From: a phage | DNA length: 64,000 nt | Reading direction: 5' to 3' (one strand) | Assembly (NCBI GenBank): GCA_012557565.1 | Contig: GCA_012557565.1_3926.1 | Shown here: positions 12,211 through 57,287 of the stretch, piece by piece | Layout of the letters: the number at the start of each line of letters is the position of its first letter | Numbering within the stretch: position 1 is the stretch's first letter | Translations under genes and position numbers: made by a program | Notes under the pieces: model-generated | Seen by the model: only the letters and a program-made list of their open reading frames with translations | What the model was told of the DNA's origin: nothing | The model's database searches: none

Positions 12211-13280
12211 TTAACCAACATCCAATCTTTTTAGGTGGTGAGCGAAAAACTTTTGACTCACTCAACAAACACTATCCAAAAATCTTTGAACTGTACAAAC
12301 AGCAGAAAGCACAAGACTGGTCTGAAGATGAGTTCCCGTTTGAGCAGTCACGATTAGACTTTGAAAGCGTTCCAGAATCAATGTCTGGTGTAATGCTTGA
12401 GATTCTTAAGTGGCAGTGGGAAGCTGATACACAGGTTGCTAAAAGTTTAGCATTTGCTTTTGCACCGTTCATCTCTGATGATATCTACGCAACGGCAATT
12501 ATGAAGCAATCTGAGATTGAGAACCTCCATGCCTTGACTTATTCAGAGATTGTTCGTCAGTGTATTAAGAATCCTGAAACAATCCTTGACGAGATTAACC
12601 AGAATACTGCTGTACAAGACCGCCTGAAGACTGTGAACAGAGCACTGGAAGAACTACTTGACGAGGGTATCAACTATCGCCTAGGTTATGTTCGTGACTC
12701 ACTGCTTGAGAAAGACCCTTTGCACTTCCACAAAGTGATTTTGAAAGGTCTCTTTGCAGTAACAGCCTTGGAAGGTGTATCCTTTATGGCATCCTTTGCA
12801 TGTACCTTTGCACTTGATGCACAAGATAAGTTCCAAGGTATTGCTCAGGCAGTACAGAAAATTATGCTTGATGAAATCCTTCACACGAAGATTGACATTG
12901 AAGCACTGAAAGAAACTTTGAAAGATGAAGAGTGGCAAGAAGCTTTCCGTCAGGTTCTCCCAGAAATCAAAGTAATTCTTGATGAAGTAGTTGAAAGTGA
13001 AGAGAAATGGTCTTATTATATTTTCTCTGAAGGACGTGCTGTTGTAGGGTTAAATACAAAACTTCTTCACGAATGGGTTTACTACAACGCCGCTCCATTG
13101 TATGATATGTTTGGTATTCCAAGAGACTTTGTAGCTCCTAAAGAACCACCTTTGAAATATATGATTAAGAAGATGGAAATTGATAAAGAGCAAAACGCTA
13201 ACCAAGAACAACAAAATGGTGCGTACCTTTTGAATACCGTTGTTGATGATTTAAATTCAGGATTTTTAGAGGTTCCTTAA
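12207..13280 (+). CDS. nrdB: ribonucleotide reductase class Ia small subunit
   Basis: 357 aa directly downstream of nrdA; ferritin-like carboxylate/His pattern (EILHTK block); C-terminal tail. Confidence 0.85.
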   Translation: MINQHPIFLGGERKTFDSLNKHYPKIFELYKQQKAQDWSEDEFPFEQSRLDFESVPESMSGVMLEILKWQWEADTQVAKSLAFAFAPFISDDIYATAIMKQSEIENLHALTYSEIVRQCIKNPETILDEINQNTAVQDRLKTVNRALEELLDEGINYRLGYVRDSLLEKDPLHFHKVILKGLFAVTALEGVSFMASFACTFALDAQDKFQGIAQAVQKIMLDEILHTKIDIEALKETLKDEEWQEAFRQVLPEIKVILDEVVESEEKWSYYIFSEGRAVVGLNTKLLHEWVYYNAAPLYDMFGIPRDFVAPKEPPLKYMIKKMEIDKEQNANQEQQNGAYLLNTVVDDLNSGFLEVP

Positions 13281-13522
13281 TGACTTATGTAATTTACTCA
13301 AAAGATGGATGCCCACAGTGTGTGACTGCTAAGAACTTTGCTCAGGCTCGTGGCTTAGACCATGTTGTTAGAATGCTTGGGAAAGATTATGAGCTAAGTG
13401 ACCTTATGGGTATTTCAAAAGTTCCTGTTCGTCAGATGCCTTTCATTATGAAGGTTGAAGATAATGAAATGAAAACAGTTGGAACACTACAAAACTTCAT
13501 GGCAGAGGTGAATAATGCTTAA
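13280..13522 (+). CDS. glutaredoxin/NrdH-like redoxin
   Basis: 80 aa with CPQC active-site motif near N-terminus; start overlaps nrdB stop. Confidence 0.65.
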   Translation: MTYVIYSKDGCPQCVTAKNFAQARGLDHVVRMLGKDYELSDLMGISKVPVRQMPFIMKVEDNEMKTVGTLQNFMAEVNNA

Positions 13523-38080: not shown

Positions 38081-38329
38081 ATGGCAACTATCCGCGCAAC
38101 TGTTAACAATTTTGGTTTTTATGCTCTGGACGTTAAGTTTGACATGGTAAACACTGGAAATGCTTTTGATATGGTTGATATGTGTCTGAAAGCAACTGTG
38201 AAAGAATACAACCCTGCTGAATGGTTCTGGAAAGAAACGAAAGAGGAGATTTTAGCAAATGGCGTTTTATCTTACTATTGGGGCGATTCTCTTATCTCTA
38301 TCTATTACGATAAAGAAGGCCGCAACTAA
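38081..38329 (+). CDS. hypothetical protein (cassette gene 14)
   Basis: Track ORF 38009-38329 trimmed to ATG 38081 after the conserved leader. Confidence 0.55.
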   Translation: MATIRATVNNFGFYALDVKFDMVNTGNAFDMVDMCLKATVKEYNPAEWFWKETKEEILANGVLSYYWGDSLISIYYDKEGRN

Positions 38330-38369
38330 CAAGACGCCGCAACGGGGCAAATAGCCCCAGACACCTTTA

Positions 38370-38391
38370 CAGCCCCTTCAATGGGGCTTTT
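38370..38391 (+). terminator. rho-independent terminator ending the plus-strand block
   Basis: AGCCCC-ttcaat-GGGGCT then TTTTT. Confidence 0.7.
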
Positions 38392-38814
38392 TGACGTCTA
38401 TACAGAACCCTTCCTAGAATCTTACCAGACCTTTAGAATAATAACTCTATAGCTTACTCTATATCATCTTATCAAGTCAACTAACTTTTCCCTTAAATAT
38501 AAGCCCATAACCCGAAAGGGAAGGGCAATCCCTAAAACGCCCTAAAACGCTCTATACGGGCTTATCATCTCATCTTAAGCAATCATATTAACCACTTCTT
38601 AAAAGCCCTTTATAGAGCTTTCTAGAGCCTTAAAAGAATCTTATAAGGGGTATAAGCTTTATTATCTCGTTAGTATCTTGTGAATAGTTAAACAGGGGCT
38701 TGATAATAGCTTCAAAGTATGCTATGGAGTCTAAAAAGAGCTTAAAAGTAACGTAAAAGTTAGCCCCCTTTACATTCTCTTAACAAAATCTTAACAAATG
38801 CAACATAGTTATGC

Positions 38815-38865
38815 TTGTTAGCCCCTTGTTAAATCCTTGTTAGTGGTATGTTAAGAGCTTGTTAG
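38815..38865 (+). repeat. phased array of 5 TGTTA(G/A) motifs at 11-bp spacing
   Basis: Motif starts at 38815, 38826, 38837, 38848, 38859; inverted-orientation copies (TTAACAA) at 38779 and 38790. Confidence 0.8.
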
Positions 38866-39126
38866 ACACTTTGAAGTCCCTGTATAAGCCCCTGTAAAGG
38901 GCTATAAAGAGCTATATAGTCAGTTGGGCTATAGATACTAGTAAGAACCTTAGAAGAGGTCACACAGAGCTATACAGGGCTTTTAAGAGGTATGTTTAGA
39001 GAATCACTGAGAGGGATAGGGAACGATAAGAGAAGAGATAGTGACCATGTTAATAGATTGTTAAACATGTTAAGAACTTAATAGACACTTGTTAATAATC
39101 TTAACAAAATAACTTTTAAATTTAAC

Positions 39127-39268
39127 ATGTTAGGGACTTGTTAGCATCTTGTTAGAACCTTGTAAGAACTGTTAAGCACTTGTTACACCCTTGTTAGTTC
39201 TGTTAAGAAACTGTTAAGAACTTTAGAGACTTGTTAGGGACTTGTTAGAGTTGTAAAGAAATTGTTAA
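39127..39268 (+). repeat. helically phased array of 14 (C)TTGTTAG-type motifs
   Basis: Motif starts 39127, 39138, 39149, 39160, 39169, 39180, 39191, 39200, 39211, 39221, 39231, 39242, 39251, 39262; spacings 9-11 bp, mean about 10.4. Confidence 0.85.
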
Positions 39269-39335
39269 TGATATTTTAAGATTTTGCAAAGGGGATGTTA
39301 CAGGGCTGTTAAGGGCTACTAAGCAGATATACATC

Positions 39336-39359
39336 CATGAGGTAGATTCTACCGAATCC
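39336..39359 (+). repeat. 24-bp direct repeat ATGAGrTAGATTCTAyCGAATCCA, copy 1 (internal GATTC/GAATC palindrome)
   Basis: Near-identical copy at 39959-39982. Confidence 0.75.
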
Positions 39360-39958
39360 ACTAGTAGATATTTTTCAGATTCTCCCAAGAACCTAAAAAG
39401 TGACCTACCTAGTCTATTTTATAAAAATTTTATAGAACTGAATAACTATCTATACACTATCTTATATAAAACAGGAATTAACAGGCTTATAAGATATCTT
39501 GTTAGTAACGTGTTAGACCTTGTAGGATAAGCCTTAGAAGGGAATACCTGTTTAGTGTTATATAACAGTCTATATAGAGGCTTAGTAATCCCTAGTGATT
39601 CTGCTATATAGGGTACTATCTTGGACATAATGGGTTACTGTTAAGTAACACAGATAACCTAGAGATTAAGATGGGTATAGGGGCTTCTAAGGGGCTAGGA
39701 AGAGGTTAGGAAGGTGATTGTATAGGGTTGATTAATGGTAGGCTTAGAAGGCTTTATAGAGGGCTATATAGAGAGCACTATTTAGGGACTAAGAGGCTAT
39801 ATAGATACTATATAATACTATATAGAGATGATGCTTAGAGAGGGTGTTTAGAAGGGTATAGATATTTTATCACATATCATGGTGACCCAAGATGAACGGA
39901 GTGAATCCCAAATTTTATAAAAATATAAATTTCGTAAATTTTACTCAATAAAAACCCC

Positions 39959-39982
39959 TATGAGATAGATTCTATCGAATCC
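39959..39982 (+). repeat. 24-bp direct repeat, copy 2
   Basis: Matches 39336-39359 with two mismatches. Confidence 0.75.
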
Positions 39983-40003
39983 ATTTTAAGGGGCTGTATA
40001 GTC

Positions 40004-40675
40004 TTACATCAATTCACTAAGCATGGCTTGCAATGAAGTTTTAGAAGTCTGGAAGAAGTGTGTGAACCCATTATGACGTTCTCTTACCTGAATCATTATC
40101 TGGTCACCCTTAATCGGGTGTGAACTAATATGGTATTCATTCATGTTCAGTACAACACCCAAACCATCTATAATGTGTCTGAGTATGTCATATTCAACAA
40201 ATTCTTCTTTACCTGTGACCTTGATACAAACACCTTTGTTGGTTCTCTTAGGGTTTATATCTTCCATAACCAGCATTTGTTGTCCACCAAGAGAAATCAT
40301 AGAGAACTCTTTACGGTTCTGCTGCTTAACATACATCTCAAGTTTCTTCAAAGTATCTTCAAAGAACGGATAAGATTTCTTGACAAAGATACCTTCAAGT
40401 GGCTCTTTACCTGAATCTTCTCGTTCCATCTTAAGTCGATTAACAAGTAATTCTAAAGACCACTTCTCACTTTCATCAAGATATGTATTGATATCATCTA
40501 GACTCAGTACCAGATACTTTCTTTCAAGTTCAAACTTTTTCATCTCTATCAAATCCTTAAAACATTTCTTAGTAATTGCTTCCCATTCTTCGGAGTTCTT
40601 TCTCTTCCTCTTCAGATGGGGAACCATATCTGTTAAGTTCTTCCAACTCTTCTTCAGTAGGTGTCCCATAATCAC
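40004..40675 (-). CDS. hypothetical protein
   Basis: 223-aa ORF, last gene of the minus-strand module. Confidence 0.5.
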   Translation of the reverse strand: MIMGHLLKKSWKNLTDMVPHLKRKRKNSEEWEAITKKCFKDLIEMKKFELERKYLVLSLDDINTYLDESEKWSLELLVNRLKMEREDSGKEPLEGIFVKKSYPFFEDTLKKLEMYVKQQNRKEFSMISLGGQQMLVMEDINPKRTNKGVCIKVTGKEEFVEYDILRHIIDGLGVVLNMNEYHISSHPIKGDQIMIQVRERHNGFTHFFQTSKTSLQAMLSELM

Positions 40676-55457: not shown

Positions 55458-55664
55458 ATGAACGAGACTAATGTTTACAAAGAACTATATGAAACTCAGA
55501 AACAGGCTCAGATGCTTCAGGCAACTGTAATGGCTGTGGCTGAACGTTTAATTGTTGCAACTGGTATTAACCCACAAGAAGCAACGATGGATAAACTTCT
55601 TAATTTAGTAGATGAAAAGTTTGGTGTAGAACCTAAACAGGAATCTGAAGAAGTTTCTGAATAA
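55458..55664 (+). CDS. hypothetical small protein, first gene of morphogenesis operon
   Basis: 68 aa; RBS GGAGAAA upstream; immediately upstream of large terminase. Confidence 0.5.
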   Translation: MNETNVYKELYETQKQAQMLQATVMAVAERLIVATGINPQEATMDKLLNLVDEKFGVEPKQESEEVSE

Positions 55665-55685
55665 TTCTATTTGCAGAGGTGCTTA

Positions 55686-57287
55686 ATGGACTTAAATGTT
55701 ATTAAGCAGAAGCGAGTGGAAGATGTAAGGAAAGTCCTAGCAGGTGAGTTGGGGCTTTCTGAAGAAGTAAAAGATATTATCAAATCCTTTGGTAAAGACC
55801 CCTCTAAATTCCTTCCAACTCAAATTCTGACTTTATTAAGATACACCCCAGACCAAGTAAGACTCATCTTTAAATTGATGACTGACAAGAACTATGTAGC
55901 TCCACAGCCTGGCTCTCAAGAGGTATTCTTGAACACTAATGCTGACTTGGTACTATATGGTGGTGCTGCTGGTGCTGGTAAGACTGCTGCCCTATTAATG
56001 GACTCACTAAGGTTCATTGAAGACCCAAACTATAATGCTGTTTATTTCCGTCGAAATACAACACAGTTACAAGGTGGTCTATGGCCTGCGGCTAAGAAGT
56101 TATTTGGTAAGTTTGGTGGAGTTCCACATGAACAGAAAATGACTATCACTTTCCCTTCTGGAGCAACTATCAAGTTTACTTATTTGGAACTTGAGAAACA
56201 CTCAGAAGGTCACCAAGGTATCGAATACTCAGCTATTTATTTCGACGAAGGTACACACTTCTCGGCTTCACAGATTTCATATCTTCAGACACGTTTACGT
56301 TCTGGTGCTGAAGGTGACTCATATATGAAAATCTCAATGAACCCAGATAGAGACCACTTTATTTATGATTGGGTAGAACCTTTCCTAGATGATGCTGGAT
56401 ATCCAGACCCAGAGAAGTGCGGCAGGATTCGTTGGTATGTTATGAATGATGGTGTCATGGTTTCTGATTGGGATAGAGATAAAATTCTTGAAATGTTCCC
56501 TCTTGAGATTCCTCAAACATATACCTTTATTTCCGGTACAATCGATGACAACCCTATTCTAGATTTCCTTGAACCTAAGTATCGTGGTAAATTAGAAAAC
56601 AACACACCAGTTAACGTTGCACGTTTACGTTTTGGTAACTGGAAAGCTCGTGCTGAAGGTTCAAACTACTGGCAAAGACAATGGTGTGAAATTGTTGATA
56701 GTGTTCCAGCAGACGTATTTGACGTAAGAGCATGGGACTTAGCAGCAACATTACCTTCTGAGGTTAACCCTAACCCTGACTGGACAGCAGGTGTTAAAAT
56801 GGGTAAATCTAAAAAAGATGGTTGCTATTATGTGATTAACGTAGTAAGATTTAGAGATAGACCTTCTGGAGTTGAAACACAAATTAACCAAACTGCTGAA
56901 GGTGATGGTAAGCGCACAGGTATTTTTATCCCTCAAGACCCCGGCGCTGCTGGTAAATCCTACGCAACCTCCCTTATTAGAAAACTTGCTGAGAAAGGTT
57001 TCCGAGCAAGAGCTAAACCAACAAATAAAGATAAAGTCACCCGTTTTGCAGGTTTCTCTGCTGCTTCTGAGGCAGGACTTGTCAAAATTGTTAGAGGCTC
57101 TTGGAATGAAGCATATTTCCAAGAACTAGAAGGTTTTTGTGGTGATGGTCGTACTAAGGATGACCAAGTGGATGCTACCAGTGATGCTTTCAACAGTCTA
57201 AACGAAGTTAAACTATTCAAGCCACCTTCAATGGGTGCTCATACAGATATTATGAAGAGTAATCCATATCAGGGGCTAAGACGATAA
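55686..57287 (+). CDS. terminase large subunit
   Basis: Walker A LYGGAAGAGKTAALL near N-terminus, size and C-terminal nuclease-like region; start set to ATG 55686 (GAGGTG upstream) rather than track TTG 55671. Confidence 0.75.
   Translation: MDLNVIKQKRVEDVRKVLAGELGLSEEVKDIIKSFGKDPSKFLPTQILTLLRYTPDQVRLIFKLMTDKNYVAPQPGSQEVFLNTNADLVLYGGAAGAGKTAALLMDSLRFIEDPNYNAVYFRRNTTQLQGGLWPAAKKLFGKFGGVPHEQKMTITFPSGATIKFTYLELEKHSEGHQGIEYSAIYFDEGTHFSASQISYLQTRLRSGAEGDSYMKISMNPDRDHFIYDWVEPFLDDAGYPDPEKCGRIRWYVMNDGVMVSDWDRDKILEMFPLEIPQTYTFISGTIDDNPILDFLEPKYRGKLENNTPVNVARLRFGNWKARAEGSNYWQRQWCEIVDSVPADVFDVRAWDLAATLPSEVNPNPDWTAGVKMGKSKKDGCYYVINVVRFRDRPSGVETQINQTAEGDGKRTGIFIPQDPGAAGKSYATSLIRKLAEKGFRARAKPTNKDKVTRFAGFSAASEAGLVKIVRGSWNEAYFQELEGFCGDGRTKDDQVDATSDAFNSLNEVKLFKPPSMGAHTDIMKSNPYQGLRR

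Follow-up and report, generated by a model that had tools for sequence, protein, structure and literature searches.

The stretch of phage DNA analysed here (64,000 nucleotides of contig GCA_012557565.1_3926.1, hereafter referred to as the window) belongs to a Felix O1-like myovirus of the subfamily Ounavirinae, its best match being the Citrobacter phage BSwM KMM4 (94%). An array of TTGTTAG-type motifs phased with the helical repeat (array C) and two other arrays of the same kind (arrays A and B; the positions of all the features are reported in Table 1) are embedded, as judged from homology, in the direct terminal repeat (DTR) found at the ends of the virion DNA, a short repeat of about 558 bp, most of which is constituted by the phased motifs themselves. 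The DTR as such was already known; what is not described in the papers searched is its construction from about 32 phased units resembling the binding sites of the host regulator ArcA, a construction that is kept across the subfamily. Taken as a whole, the sequence data make it somewhat probable that the DTR serves as a platform on which a protein would assemble cooperatively along one face of the helix, the best candidate being the phosphorylated form of ArcA (ArcA-P).

Phased arrays in the direct terminal repeat

The sequence-only reading of the window had listed 14 motif starts between 39127 and 39262, spaced by 9-11 bp with a mean of about 10.4 bp. All 14 positions carry a unit of the TTGTTAG type, and the successive spacings (11, 11, 11, 9, 11, 11, 9, 11, 10, 10, 11, 9, and 11 bp, i.e., 135 bp over 13 intervals) give a measured mean of 10.38 bp. 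The core of the unit is TGTTA in 11 of the 14 cases and TGTAA in two others (39160 and 39251), the remaining one being degenerate (CTTTAGAG, at 39221). The alternation of two 11-bp spacings and one 9-bp spacing generates a super-period of 31 bp, corresponding to three helical turns, and periods of 11, 31, 42, and 51 were returned by Tandem Repeats Finder. Shuffled sequences had been named as a control for a periodicity arising by chance, and they do not equal what is observed: the region 39100-39290 contains 13 TGT[TA]A cores, against 1.65±1.16 (maximum 7) in 2000 dinucleotide shuffles, and the Rayleigh power at a period of 10.3 bp is 11.3, against a maximum of 9.9 in 2000 random placements of an equal number of sites. 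Along the 64 kb of the window, the density of TGTTA reaches its peak at array C, with 11 occurrences per 150 bp versus a mean of 0.31.

A second in-phase array, preceded by two inverted copies, had also been pointed out. The former corresponds to array A, whose five copies are spaced by exactly 11 bp and which runs on in a degenerate form up to about 38920 (CTGTATAAG, CTGTAAAG, CTATAAAG, and CTATATAG); the latter, located at 38782 and 38793, belong to a group of three inverted units close to the left terminus. What had been overlooked is array B, further inverted copies together with a palindrome, two pairs of units, and the identity of the whole as a terminal repeat. The palindrome (TAACATGTTA, 39123-39132) is formed by the inverted TTAACA copy at 39122-39127 and the first unit of array C. 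Overall, the DTR harbors about 32 units (about 25 plus-strand and 7 minus-strand ones), and the selected part of the unit is (T/A)TGTTA(A/G). Their layout consists of three head-to-tail arrays with outward-pointing copies beside both termini, and CCCTTAACA sits 3-5 nt inside each terminus.

The assignment of this region to the terminal repeat comes from the comparison with related phages. The DTR of UAB_Phi87, which is 608 bp long according to Bal31 digestion and run-off sequencing and is printed in Figure S1 of Bardina et al., aligns end to end with positions ~38771-39322 of the window. The records of Pr103Blw, CRP22, D4, and NBEco005 open at GCCCCCTTAACA, at the base homologous to position 38763 of the window. 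In Pr103Blw, where positions 1-581 and 87841-88421 are annotated as a short direct terminal repeat, both copies have the same sequence; D4 carries an exact 581-bp repeat at both ends of its record, and in CRP22 and NBEco005 the repeat is found at two places in each record. The boundaries of the records opened with PhageTerm are offset from those of UAB_Phi87 by 8 nt on the left and 2 nt on the right. According to the literature, packaging in these phages makes use of short, exact DTRs: lengths of 581 and 613 bp have been published for the Felix O1-like phages Pr103Blw and Ro111lw, respectively, and "short terminal repeats" have been inferred in the literature for Felix O1. The presence of the repeat at both genome ends is seen in the relatives only (Pr103Blw and D4), and the DTR is single in the window because the assembly collapsed its two copies. 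The element of the window is therefore the same as that of UAB_Phi87, Pr103Blw, and Ro111lw, with which it shares homology from end to end, the conserved ends, and the position between convergent gene blocks, differing in its length (~558 bp versus 581-613 bp in the other phages). The published accounts of these repeats are limited to their length and sequence. The section of Bardina et al. dealing with the repeat of UAB_Phi87 does not mention internal phased arrays, nor are these described in any other paper of the searched literature.

Other record ends were considered as possible physical ends and discarded. The DTR reported for KMM2 (OP902295) is just an assembly overlap of ~60 bp lying inside the true repeat and carries no information on the physical ends; it is on the strength of this overlap that the record is called complete in GenBank. 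The record of BPS15Q2 begins close to the repeat without coinciding with its start, and that of UAB_Phi87 opens in a tRNA region.

The arrays turned out to be conserved in the related phages, where the sequence-only reading had suggested looking for them; they are present across the relatives, including Felix O1 and an Erwinia phage. In the alignment of the DTRs of 13 genomes, the fraction of identical residues is 0.96 in the TGTTA columns versus 0.82 in the spacers (Mann-Whitney p=1.5e-14), and the internal indels mostly correspond to one or two units (10-11 or 21-23 bp), apart from one insert of 49-50 bp and a few 1-bp gaps. The 9-bp resets, as an example TTGTTAGTTCTGTTAAG, are conserved in the aligned DTRs, and since they interrupt the 11-bp runs, the average spacing is held at 10.3-10.4 bp. 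Every relative has 18-26 plus-strand cores per repeat, and 23 of them are found in Felix O1 itself (positions 12771-13339 of its record). The left inverted units are kept in all the relatives, with three perfect TTAACA copies in the Felixounavirus genomes; array B is strongly conserved, the inverted copies between arrays B and C are conserved in the alignment, and the right-terminal pair is nearly invariant across the 13 genomes. The Erwinia phage Hena2, which belongs to another genus and shows almost no further DNA similarity, has matching TGTTAAG arrays and end sequences, and its record opens at the homologous left end. Over the whole genome of D4, the clusters of the motif are confined to the two copies of the DTR.

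Some of the aligned DTRs also harbor inserts. One of 22 bp (ATTGGTATTGTTACCAATCCCT), in which palindromic arms (ATTGGTA/TACCAAT) are placed around a TTGTTA core, is found in wV8, SUSP2, and UAB_Phi87, aligned to positions ~39104 and ~39127 of the window, and its location varies from genome to genome. An insert of 21 bp occurs near positions 39011-39036 of the window in NBEco005 and SP116, the former having also a 49-bp insert with the same arms. Elements of the ATTGGTATTGTTACCAATCCCT type look like small mobile or hairpin-forming inserts within the DTR.

Resemblance of the units to ArcA sites

It is known that ArcA-P recognises 10-bp direct-repeat elements (ATGTTAAAAA), in which TGTTA is the most conserved part, placed 11 bp apart from centre to centre (Park et al. 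2013; Park & Kiley 2014). As many as 92 of 158 ArcA sites of E. coli contain three to five elements at 11 or 22 bp, the elements are bound cooperatively, and weak elements with TGTAA or TGTCA occur naturally. The core, the spacing, and the orientation of the phage units match these host sites, and the match, which is one of sequence, is quantitative. Besides the TGTTA core, the two have in common a T or an A before it, an A after it, the direct orientation, the spacing of 11 or 22 bp, the weaker TGTAA variant, and the organization in multi-repeat sites; they differ in that the phage has ~32 repeats, located in the DTR of a virus, where the binding of ArcA is a prediction.

An 18-bp ArcA matrix was rebuilt from 115 of the 128 boxes of the authors' Table S3 and reproduced the published scores within ~1 bit; the cut-off of the authors is 9-10 bits, the mean of the true sites is 15.6 bits, and the maximum reached in E. 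coli with the rebuilt matrix is 21.6. With this matrix, 16 boxes of the DTR score 9 bits or more; 14 of them reach 10 bits and 7 reach 15 bits, and the three best stand at 21.1, 20.6, and 20.6 bits. The density of boxes is 25 per kb in the DTR versus 0.68 in the rest of the window and 0.71 in the rest of the D4 genome, and dinucleotide shuffles of the DTR yielded 0.64±0.81 boxes against the 14 observed. The top-scoring box of the whole window (ATGTTAATAGATTGTTAA, 21.1 bits) falls within array B; seven boxes of at least 9 bits belong to array C, among them those at 39251 (20.6 bits), 39262 (17.7), and 39200 (15.1), and the left inverted units form two overlapping boxes of the ArcA type on the minus strand (17.2 and 20.6 bits). 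In the 15 relatives that were scored, 7-18 boxes each were found, with maxima up to 22.8 bits; the range becomes 13-18 if UAB_Phi87 is left out, whose error-prone sequence was copied from a PDF.

The spacing of the half-sites leads in the same direction. Pairs of half-sites are most abundant at 11 bp (16 pairs), followed by 22 and 20 bp (10 pairs each), with 0-3 pairs at most other spacings and a minor peak of 7 pairs at 9 bp, which is not an ArcA spacing. As to exact TGTTA-N6-TGTTA pairs, 13 of the 14 present in the 64 kb of the window are inside the DTR. Considering the 32 TGT[TA]A cores of the DTR, the variable position is T (TGTTA) in 81% and A (TGTAA) in 19% of them, the corresponding values for the E. 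coli boxes being 76% and 19%. The DTR units thus display the core, the same-orientation spacing at 11 or 22 bp, and the box score of ArcA sites, but not their A/T-rich flanks. Consensus pairs for other members of the OmpR family (PhoP, PmrA, CpxR, PhoB, and RstA) and the TorR box were also searched for, and none of them occurs in the DTR. No OmpR-type domain was detected in any reading frame of D4 or of the window with an ArcA/PhoB/OmpR profile, which returned noise only; Pfam found both the expected domains in the ArcA probe of this profile. A precedent on a mobile element exists, since the footprint of ArcA-P in the PY promoter of F-like plasmids falls on TGTTAAGTAAATGTTAA, a site sharing the TGTTAAG heptamer with the phage units.

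The sequence-only reading had proposed that the phasing might reflect either cooperative protein binding on one face of the DNA or intrinsic curvature, and just the first half of this proposal finds support. This support is indirect and comes from the different conservation of cores and spacers, the unit-sized indels, the 9-bp resets, and the match to the sites of ArcA-P, a cooperative head-to-tail binder. Intrinsic curvature is not supported: with two dinucleotide wedge models, the predicted curvature of the arrays is below the median of the window. Array C ranks at the 37th percentile of the window according to Trifonov and at the 22nd according to De Santis, and its ratio of end-to-end distance to contour length (0.96-0.99) makes it straighter than average. 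Since no unusual curvature is predicted, phased protein binding is the better reading of the two.

A possible assembly at the genome ends and its rivals

According to the model proposed here, the DTR would be a platform of phased head-to-tail sites to which a protein might bind every ~11 bp, and thanks to the 9-bp resets long runs would stay on a single face of the helix, so that a cooperative nucleoprotein array might be built on the DTR, on each genome end as well as on each concatemer junction. That some protein binds these units is very probable. The protein assembling on the DTR would be of the winged-helix type, the best candidate being ArcA-P, i.e., the phosphorylated redox response regulator of the OmpR/PhoB family encoded by the host; that the ligand is this regulator rather than a phage protein is a plausible suggestion, falling a little short of probable.

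The fact that the arrays form the DTR changes what such binding is likely to be for. Since the arrays coincide with the DTR and outward-pointing pairs are located 6-8 bp from both termini, an architectural role at the genome ends is favoured, even if in a tentative way. This role might consist in organising or marking the junction for the cutting by the terminase and the duplication of the repeat, in shielding the ends, or in insulating the convergent transcription units from each other; the enzyme that must cut at the boundaries of the DTR is the large subunit of the terminase. Alternative roles would be the control of replication or the titration of ArcA.

Phased repeats bound by cooperative proteins are found in plasmid partition centromeres, as in parC of R1 (ten repeats of 11 bp, bound by ParR) and in tubC of pBtoxis (bound by TubR), where a cooperative filament is formed on head-to-tail repeats of ~11-12 bp; they differ from the phage arrays in their motif and in being located at promoters, and the phage is virulent and parMR/tubZR genes are not present. 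In phi29, whose genome is linear, the p6 protein forms a phased cooperative nucleoprotein array that extends over several hundred bp from either end. It recognises bendability, with a period of 24 bp, and not a sequence motif, and phi29 has terminal proteins and no DTR.

A number of observations weigh against ArcA-P as the ligand and against the model in general. To begin with, the similarity to ArcA sites is that of a 5-bp core plus a spacing common to winged-helix regulators, and several details of the units are not those of the host sites. A G follows TGTTA in 25-31% of the phage units versus 3% of the E. coli boxes, a C is found two nucleotides upstream in 45-56% of the units versus 4% of the boxes, and the spacers contain G and C instead of being A/T-rich; the correlation of the flanking columns alone is 0.47. 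The 9-bp spacings are not usual for ArcA, the runs comprise 5-14 units versus 2-5 in the host, and the sites of the DTR do not overlap promoters, unlike most of those of the host. Moreover, ArcA is fully active only at low oxygen, and these phages grow in aerated cultures. No paper on arcA and Felix O1-like phages was found in the searched library, and a search of the literature for the arrays, for ArcA in connection with these phages, and for the non-coding region of Bas63 returned nothing. As for the DTR itself, its boundaries in the window are derived from homology and not from reads. A long-range phase among the arrays was also considered and set aside: almost all the genomes give 10.4 bp as their best global period, but when the clusters were kept and their offsets jittered, the coherence between separate arrays was not clearly above chance (P=0.25 in the window and 0.03-0.3 in the relatives). 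The inverted similarity of the two termini was likewise no higher than that of other motif-rich 40-mers.

Some of these discrepancies are what would be expected if the ligand were encoded by the phage. A small subunit of the terminase that has escaped recognition, or an accessory protein acting in packaging or binding the ends, might coat or wrap the DTR and direct the cutting at its boundaries, the likeness to ArcA sites being coincidental. This explanation, which is rather unlikely as a whole, would account for the arrays being placed exactly in the DTR, with motif pairs 6-8 bp from both termini, as well as for the flanks with a C upstream and a G downstream, the spacers containing G and C, and the 9-bp resets, none of which is ArcA-like. 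The Pharokka annotation of the relative D4 lists no small terminase subunit, and since these phages have no identified subunit of this kind, they must possess a DNA-recognition protein that is still unassigned. A parallel can be drawn with T7, another phage with a short DTR (160 bp), in whose record CCTAAAG cores are found at 174-340 in about a dozen copies with a period of 13 bp and variable spacers. The two systems share the short DTR, a conserved core of ~7 bp followed by a variable spacer, and about 12 copies at a genome end; in T7, the core is a different one, the period is not that of the helix, and the array is mostly beside the repeat rather than filling it. The T7 sequence is also without ArcA-type boxes (one in 700 bp), and the likeness is one of analogy, not of homology. 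No candidate for such a phage protein was found, however: the ORF upstream of the gene for the terminase large subunit is acidic and has no known function, nor do any of the eight genes on the two sides of the DTR, which are also without a DNA-binding domain, no OmpR-type domain came up in the searches reported above, and the sole annotated regulator has an HTH of the Cro/C1 type, a class usually binding palindromes. In addition, the match to ArcA sites spans the core, the preceding base, the ratio of the TGTAA variant, and the spacing at 11 and 22 bp together.

A second possibility, which appears improbable, is that the units are the iterons of a replication origin, in which an initiator would bind the phased repeats and open the adjacent A/T-rich DNA. 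Phased direct repeats near A/T-rich stretches (39405-39470 and 39905-39935) do represent a classic origin layout, and no other non-coding stretch of the genome is as large as this region. The units, however, measure 11 bp, versus the 17-22 bp typical of iterons, and neither an initiator nor a DNA-binding domain is recognisable in the flanking genes. The arrays match the extent of the DTR precisely, while the A/T-rich stretches lie outside it, and the cumulative GC skew of D4 tracks the direction of transcription, the DTR giving no signal of an origin. Binding of ArcA-P to oriC has been reported, and a control of replication would be compatible with ArcA as the ligand. As to a repeat without any ligand, i.e., an 11-bp tandem array made by slippage, or a curved DNA, tolerated in a non-coding DTR, it is highly improbable: unit-sized indels do indicate that slippage or unequal exchange occurs, and exact 11-mer TGTTA microsatellites are common in viral contigs, but here the copies are non-identical, with conserved cores and diverging spacers (the opposite of a young microsatellite), they persist across genera including the Erwinia phages, and their predicted curvature is unremarkable.

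Coming back to ArcA-P, the coexistence of a conserved phased array, of the rules of ArcA recognition, and of no detectable phage protein of that class turns an anonymous non-coding block into a testable hypothesis. In its widest form, which is advanced with considerable reserve, the DTR would be made of ~30 ArcA-P sites throughout a subfamily of virulent phages of enterobacteria (Felix O1, wV8, Mooglevirus, Suspvirus, and the Erwinia Kolesnikvirus), whose genome ends and concatemer junctions would be coated by a host regulator. A process taking place at the genome ends (cutting by the terminase with duplication of the DTR, protection of the ends, insulation of the junction, or replication) might in this way be coupled to the respiratory state of the host, or else the DTR might act as a decoy, the replicating phage DNA draining ArcA-P and thus de-repressing the host genes for carbon oxidation. 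Felix O1-like phages are among the classical phages for the typing of Salmonella and find application in biocontrol. If ArcA-P does bind, a virulent phage would be bringing a two-component response regulator of its host to the ends of its genome, for which there are few parallels; the amount of phage produced in the low-oxygen gut might then be subject to the redox signalling of the host, and the arrays might have to be preserved in engineered genomes. If a phage protein binds instead, the arrays would offer a handle for finding the missing DNA-recognition component of packaging in this subfamily.

The non-coding region and further observations

Table 1. Position of the arrays, of the other units, and of the related features in the window
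Feature	Position	Strand	Description
ORF-free region	38330..40003		~1.7 kb between convergent gene blocks, from the ORF list
DTR	~38763..39320		left end GCCCCCTTTACATT, right end ...TGTTAAGGGCTACT; boundaries in the window by homology only
Inverted units	38769..38797	-	three units (TTTACA, TTAACA, TTAACA), 11-bp spacing, the first 6 bp from the left terminus
Array A	38815..38865	+	five units at exactly 11 bp; boxes of 10.5-15.2 bits
Array B	39047..39095	+	ATGTTAA, TTGTTAA, ATGTTAA, TTAATAG, TTGTTAA; spacings 11/9/11/11
Inverted copies between arrays B and C	39100..39133	-	CTTAACAA at 39100-39107; TTAACA at 39122-39127
Array C	39127..39268	+	14 head-to-tail units, 11-11-9 pattern, 31-bp super-period, mean 10.38 bp
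Right-terminal pair	39295..39312	+	ATGTTACAGGGCTGTTAA (39295/39306), 10.2 bits; stops 8 bp short of the right terminus
Extra pair	39499..39516	+	TTGTTAGTAACGTGTTAG (39499/39510), 12.0 bits; right flank, ~180 bp outside the DTR
Terminase large subunit gene	55671..57287	+	phrog_979, E=5e-234; annotation of D4

The DTR is located within a region that is free of ORFs and represents the largest non-coding stretch of the genome; the plus-strand genes end at 38329 and the minus-strand ones at 40004. The same convergent layout, with terminators on both sides, is present in the annotated relatives (Michonne and wV8). Two other interpretations of this region were discarded. The promoter-like matches in the DTR are only weak, none of them being better than 9/12, and an RNA element was rejected because no match to Rfam was obtained for the non-coding region.

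Clusters comparable to the extra pair of the right flank exist outside the DTR in BPS15Q2 and Hena2. They are of the TGTTAAGA type and lie near the end of the minus-strand block, at 940-1000 in the former and at 601-660 and 776-830 in the latter, where the spacing is 12-13 bp and not 11 bp.

As to the gene for the terminase large subunit, its product matches the PHROG profile only from position 82 of the profile on. The acidic ORF directly upstream of it (68 amino acids; 55458-57287 region) corresponds to phrog_4397, whose function is unknown.

In a scan of IMG/VR for four TGTTA at 11 bp, the matches listed were mostly exact 11-mer microsatellites and were uninformative on the host range. Among the same matches listed, five (L055, L059, L114, L115, and L134) have TGTTA at 11 bp with variable spacers and no similarity to the window; these repeats are not plain microsatellites.

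The flanks of the DTR contain other repeated words. The 8-bp palindrome CTATATAG has six exact copies in the 64-kb window, and all six are in the non-coding region (38912, 39570, 39604, 39764, 39797, and 39818), mostly in the right flank outside the DTR, with variants scattered through 38398-39995. This family may be the site of a dimeric HTH protein, as a relative encodes an HTH of the Cro/C1 type. The non-coding region also accounts for 22 of the 50 CTATA[TAC]A words of the window, and the motif occurs in the flank of BPS15Q2 as well. The two A/T-rich stretches of the right flank mentioned above, as an example TTTTATAAAAATTTTATAG and AAATTTTATAAAAATATAAATTT, give weak ArcA boxes through their composition alone and could be unwinding elements, or else remnants of terminators or promoters. 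In the left flank, two short tandem repeats are found, CCCTAAAACG and CTTTATAGAG, each repeated 2.5 times, at 38530-38554 and 38608-38632.

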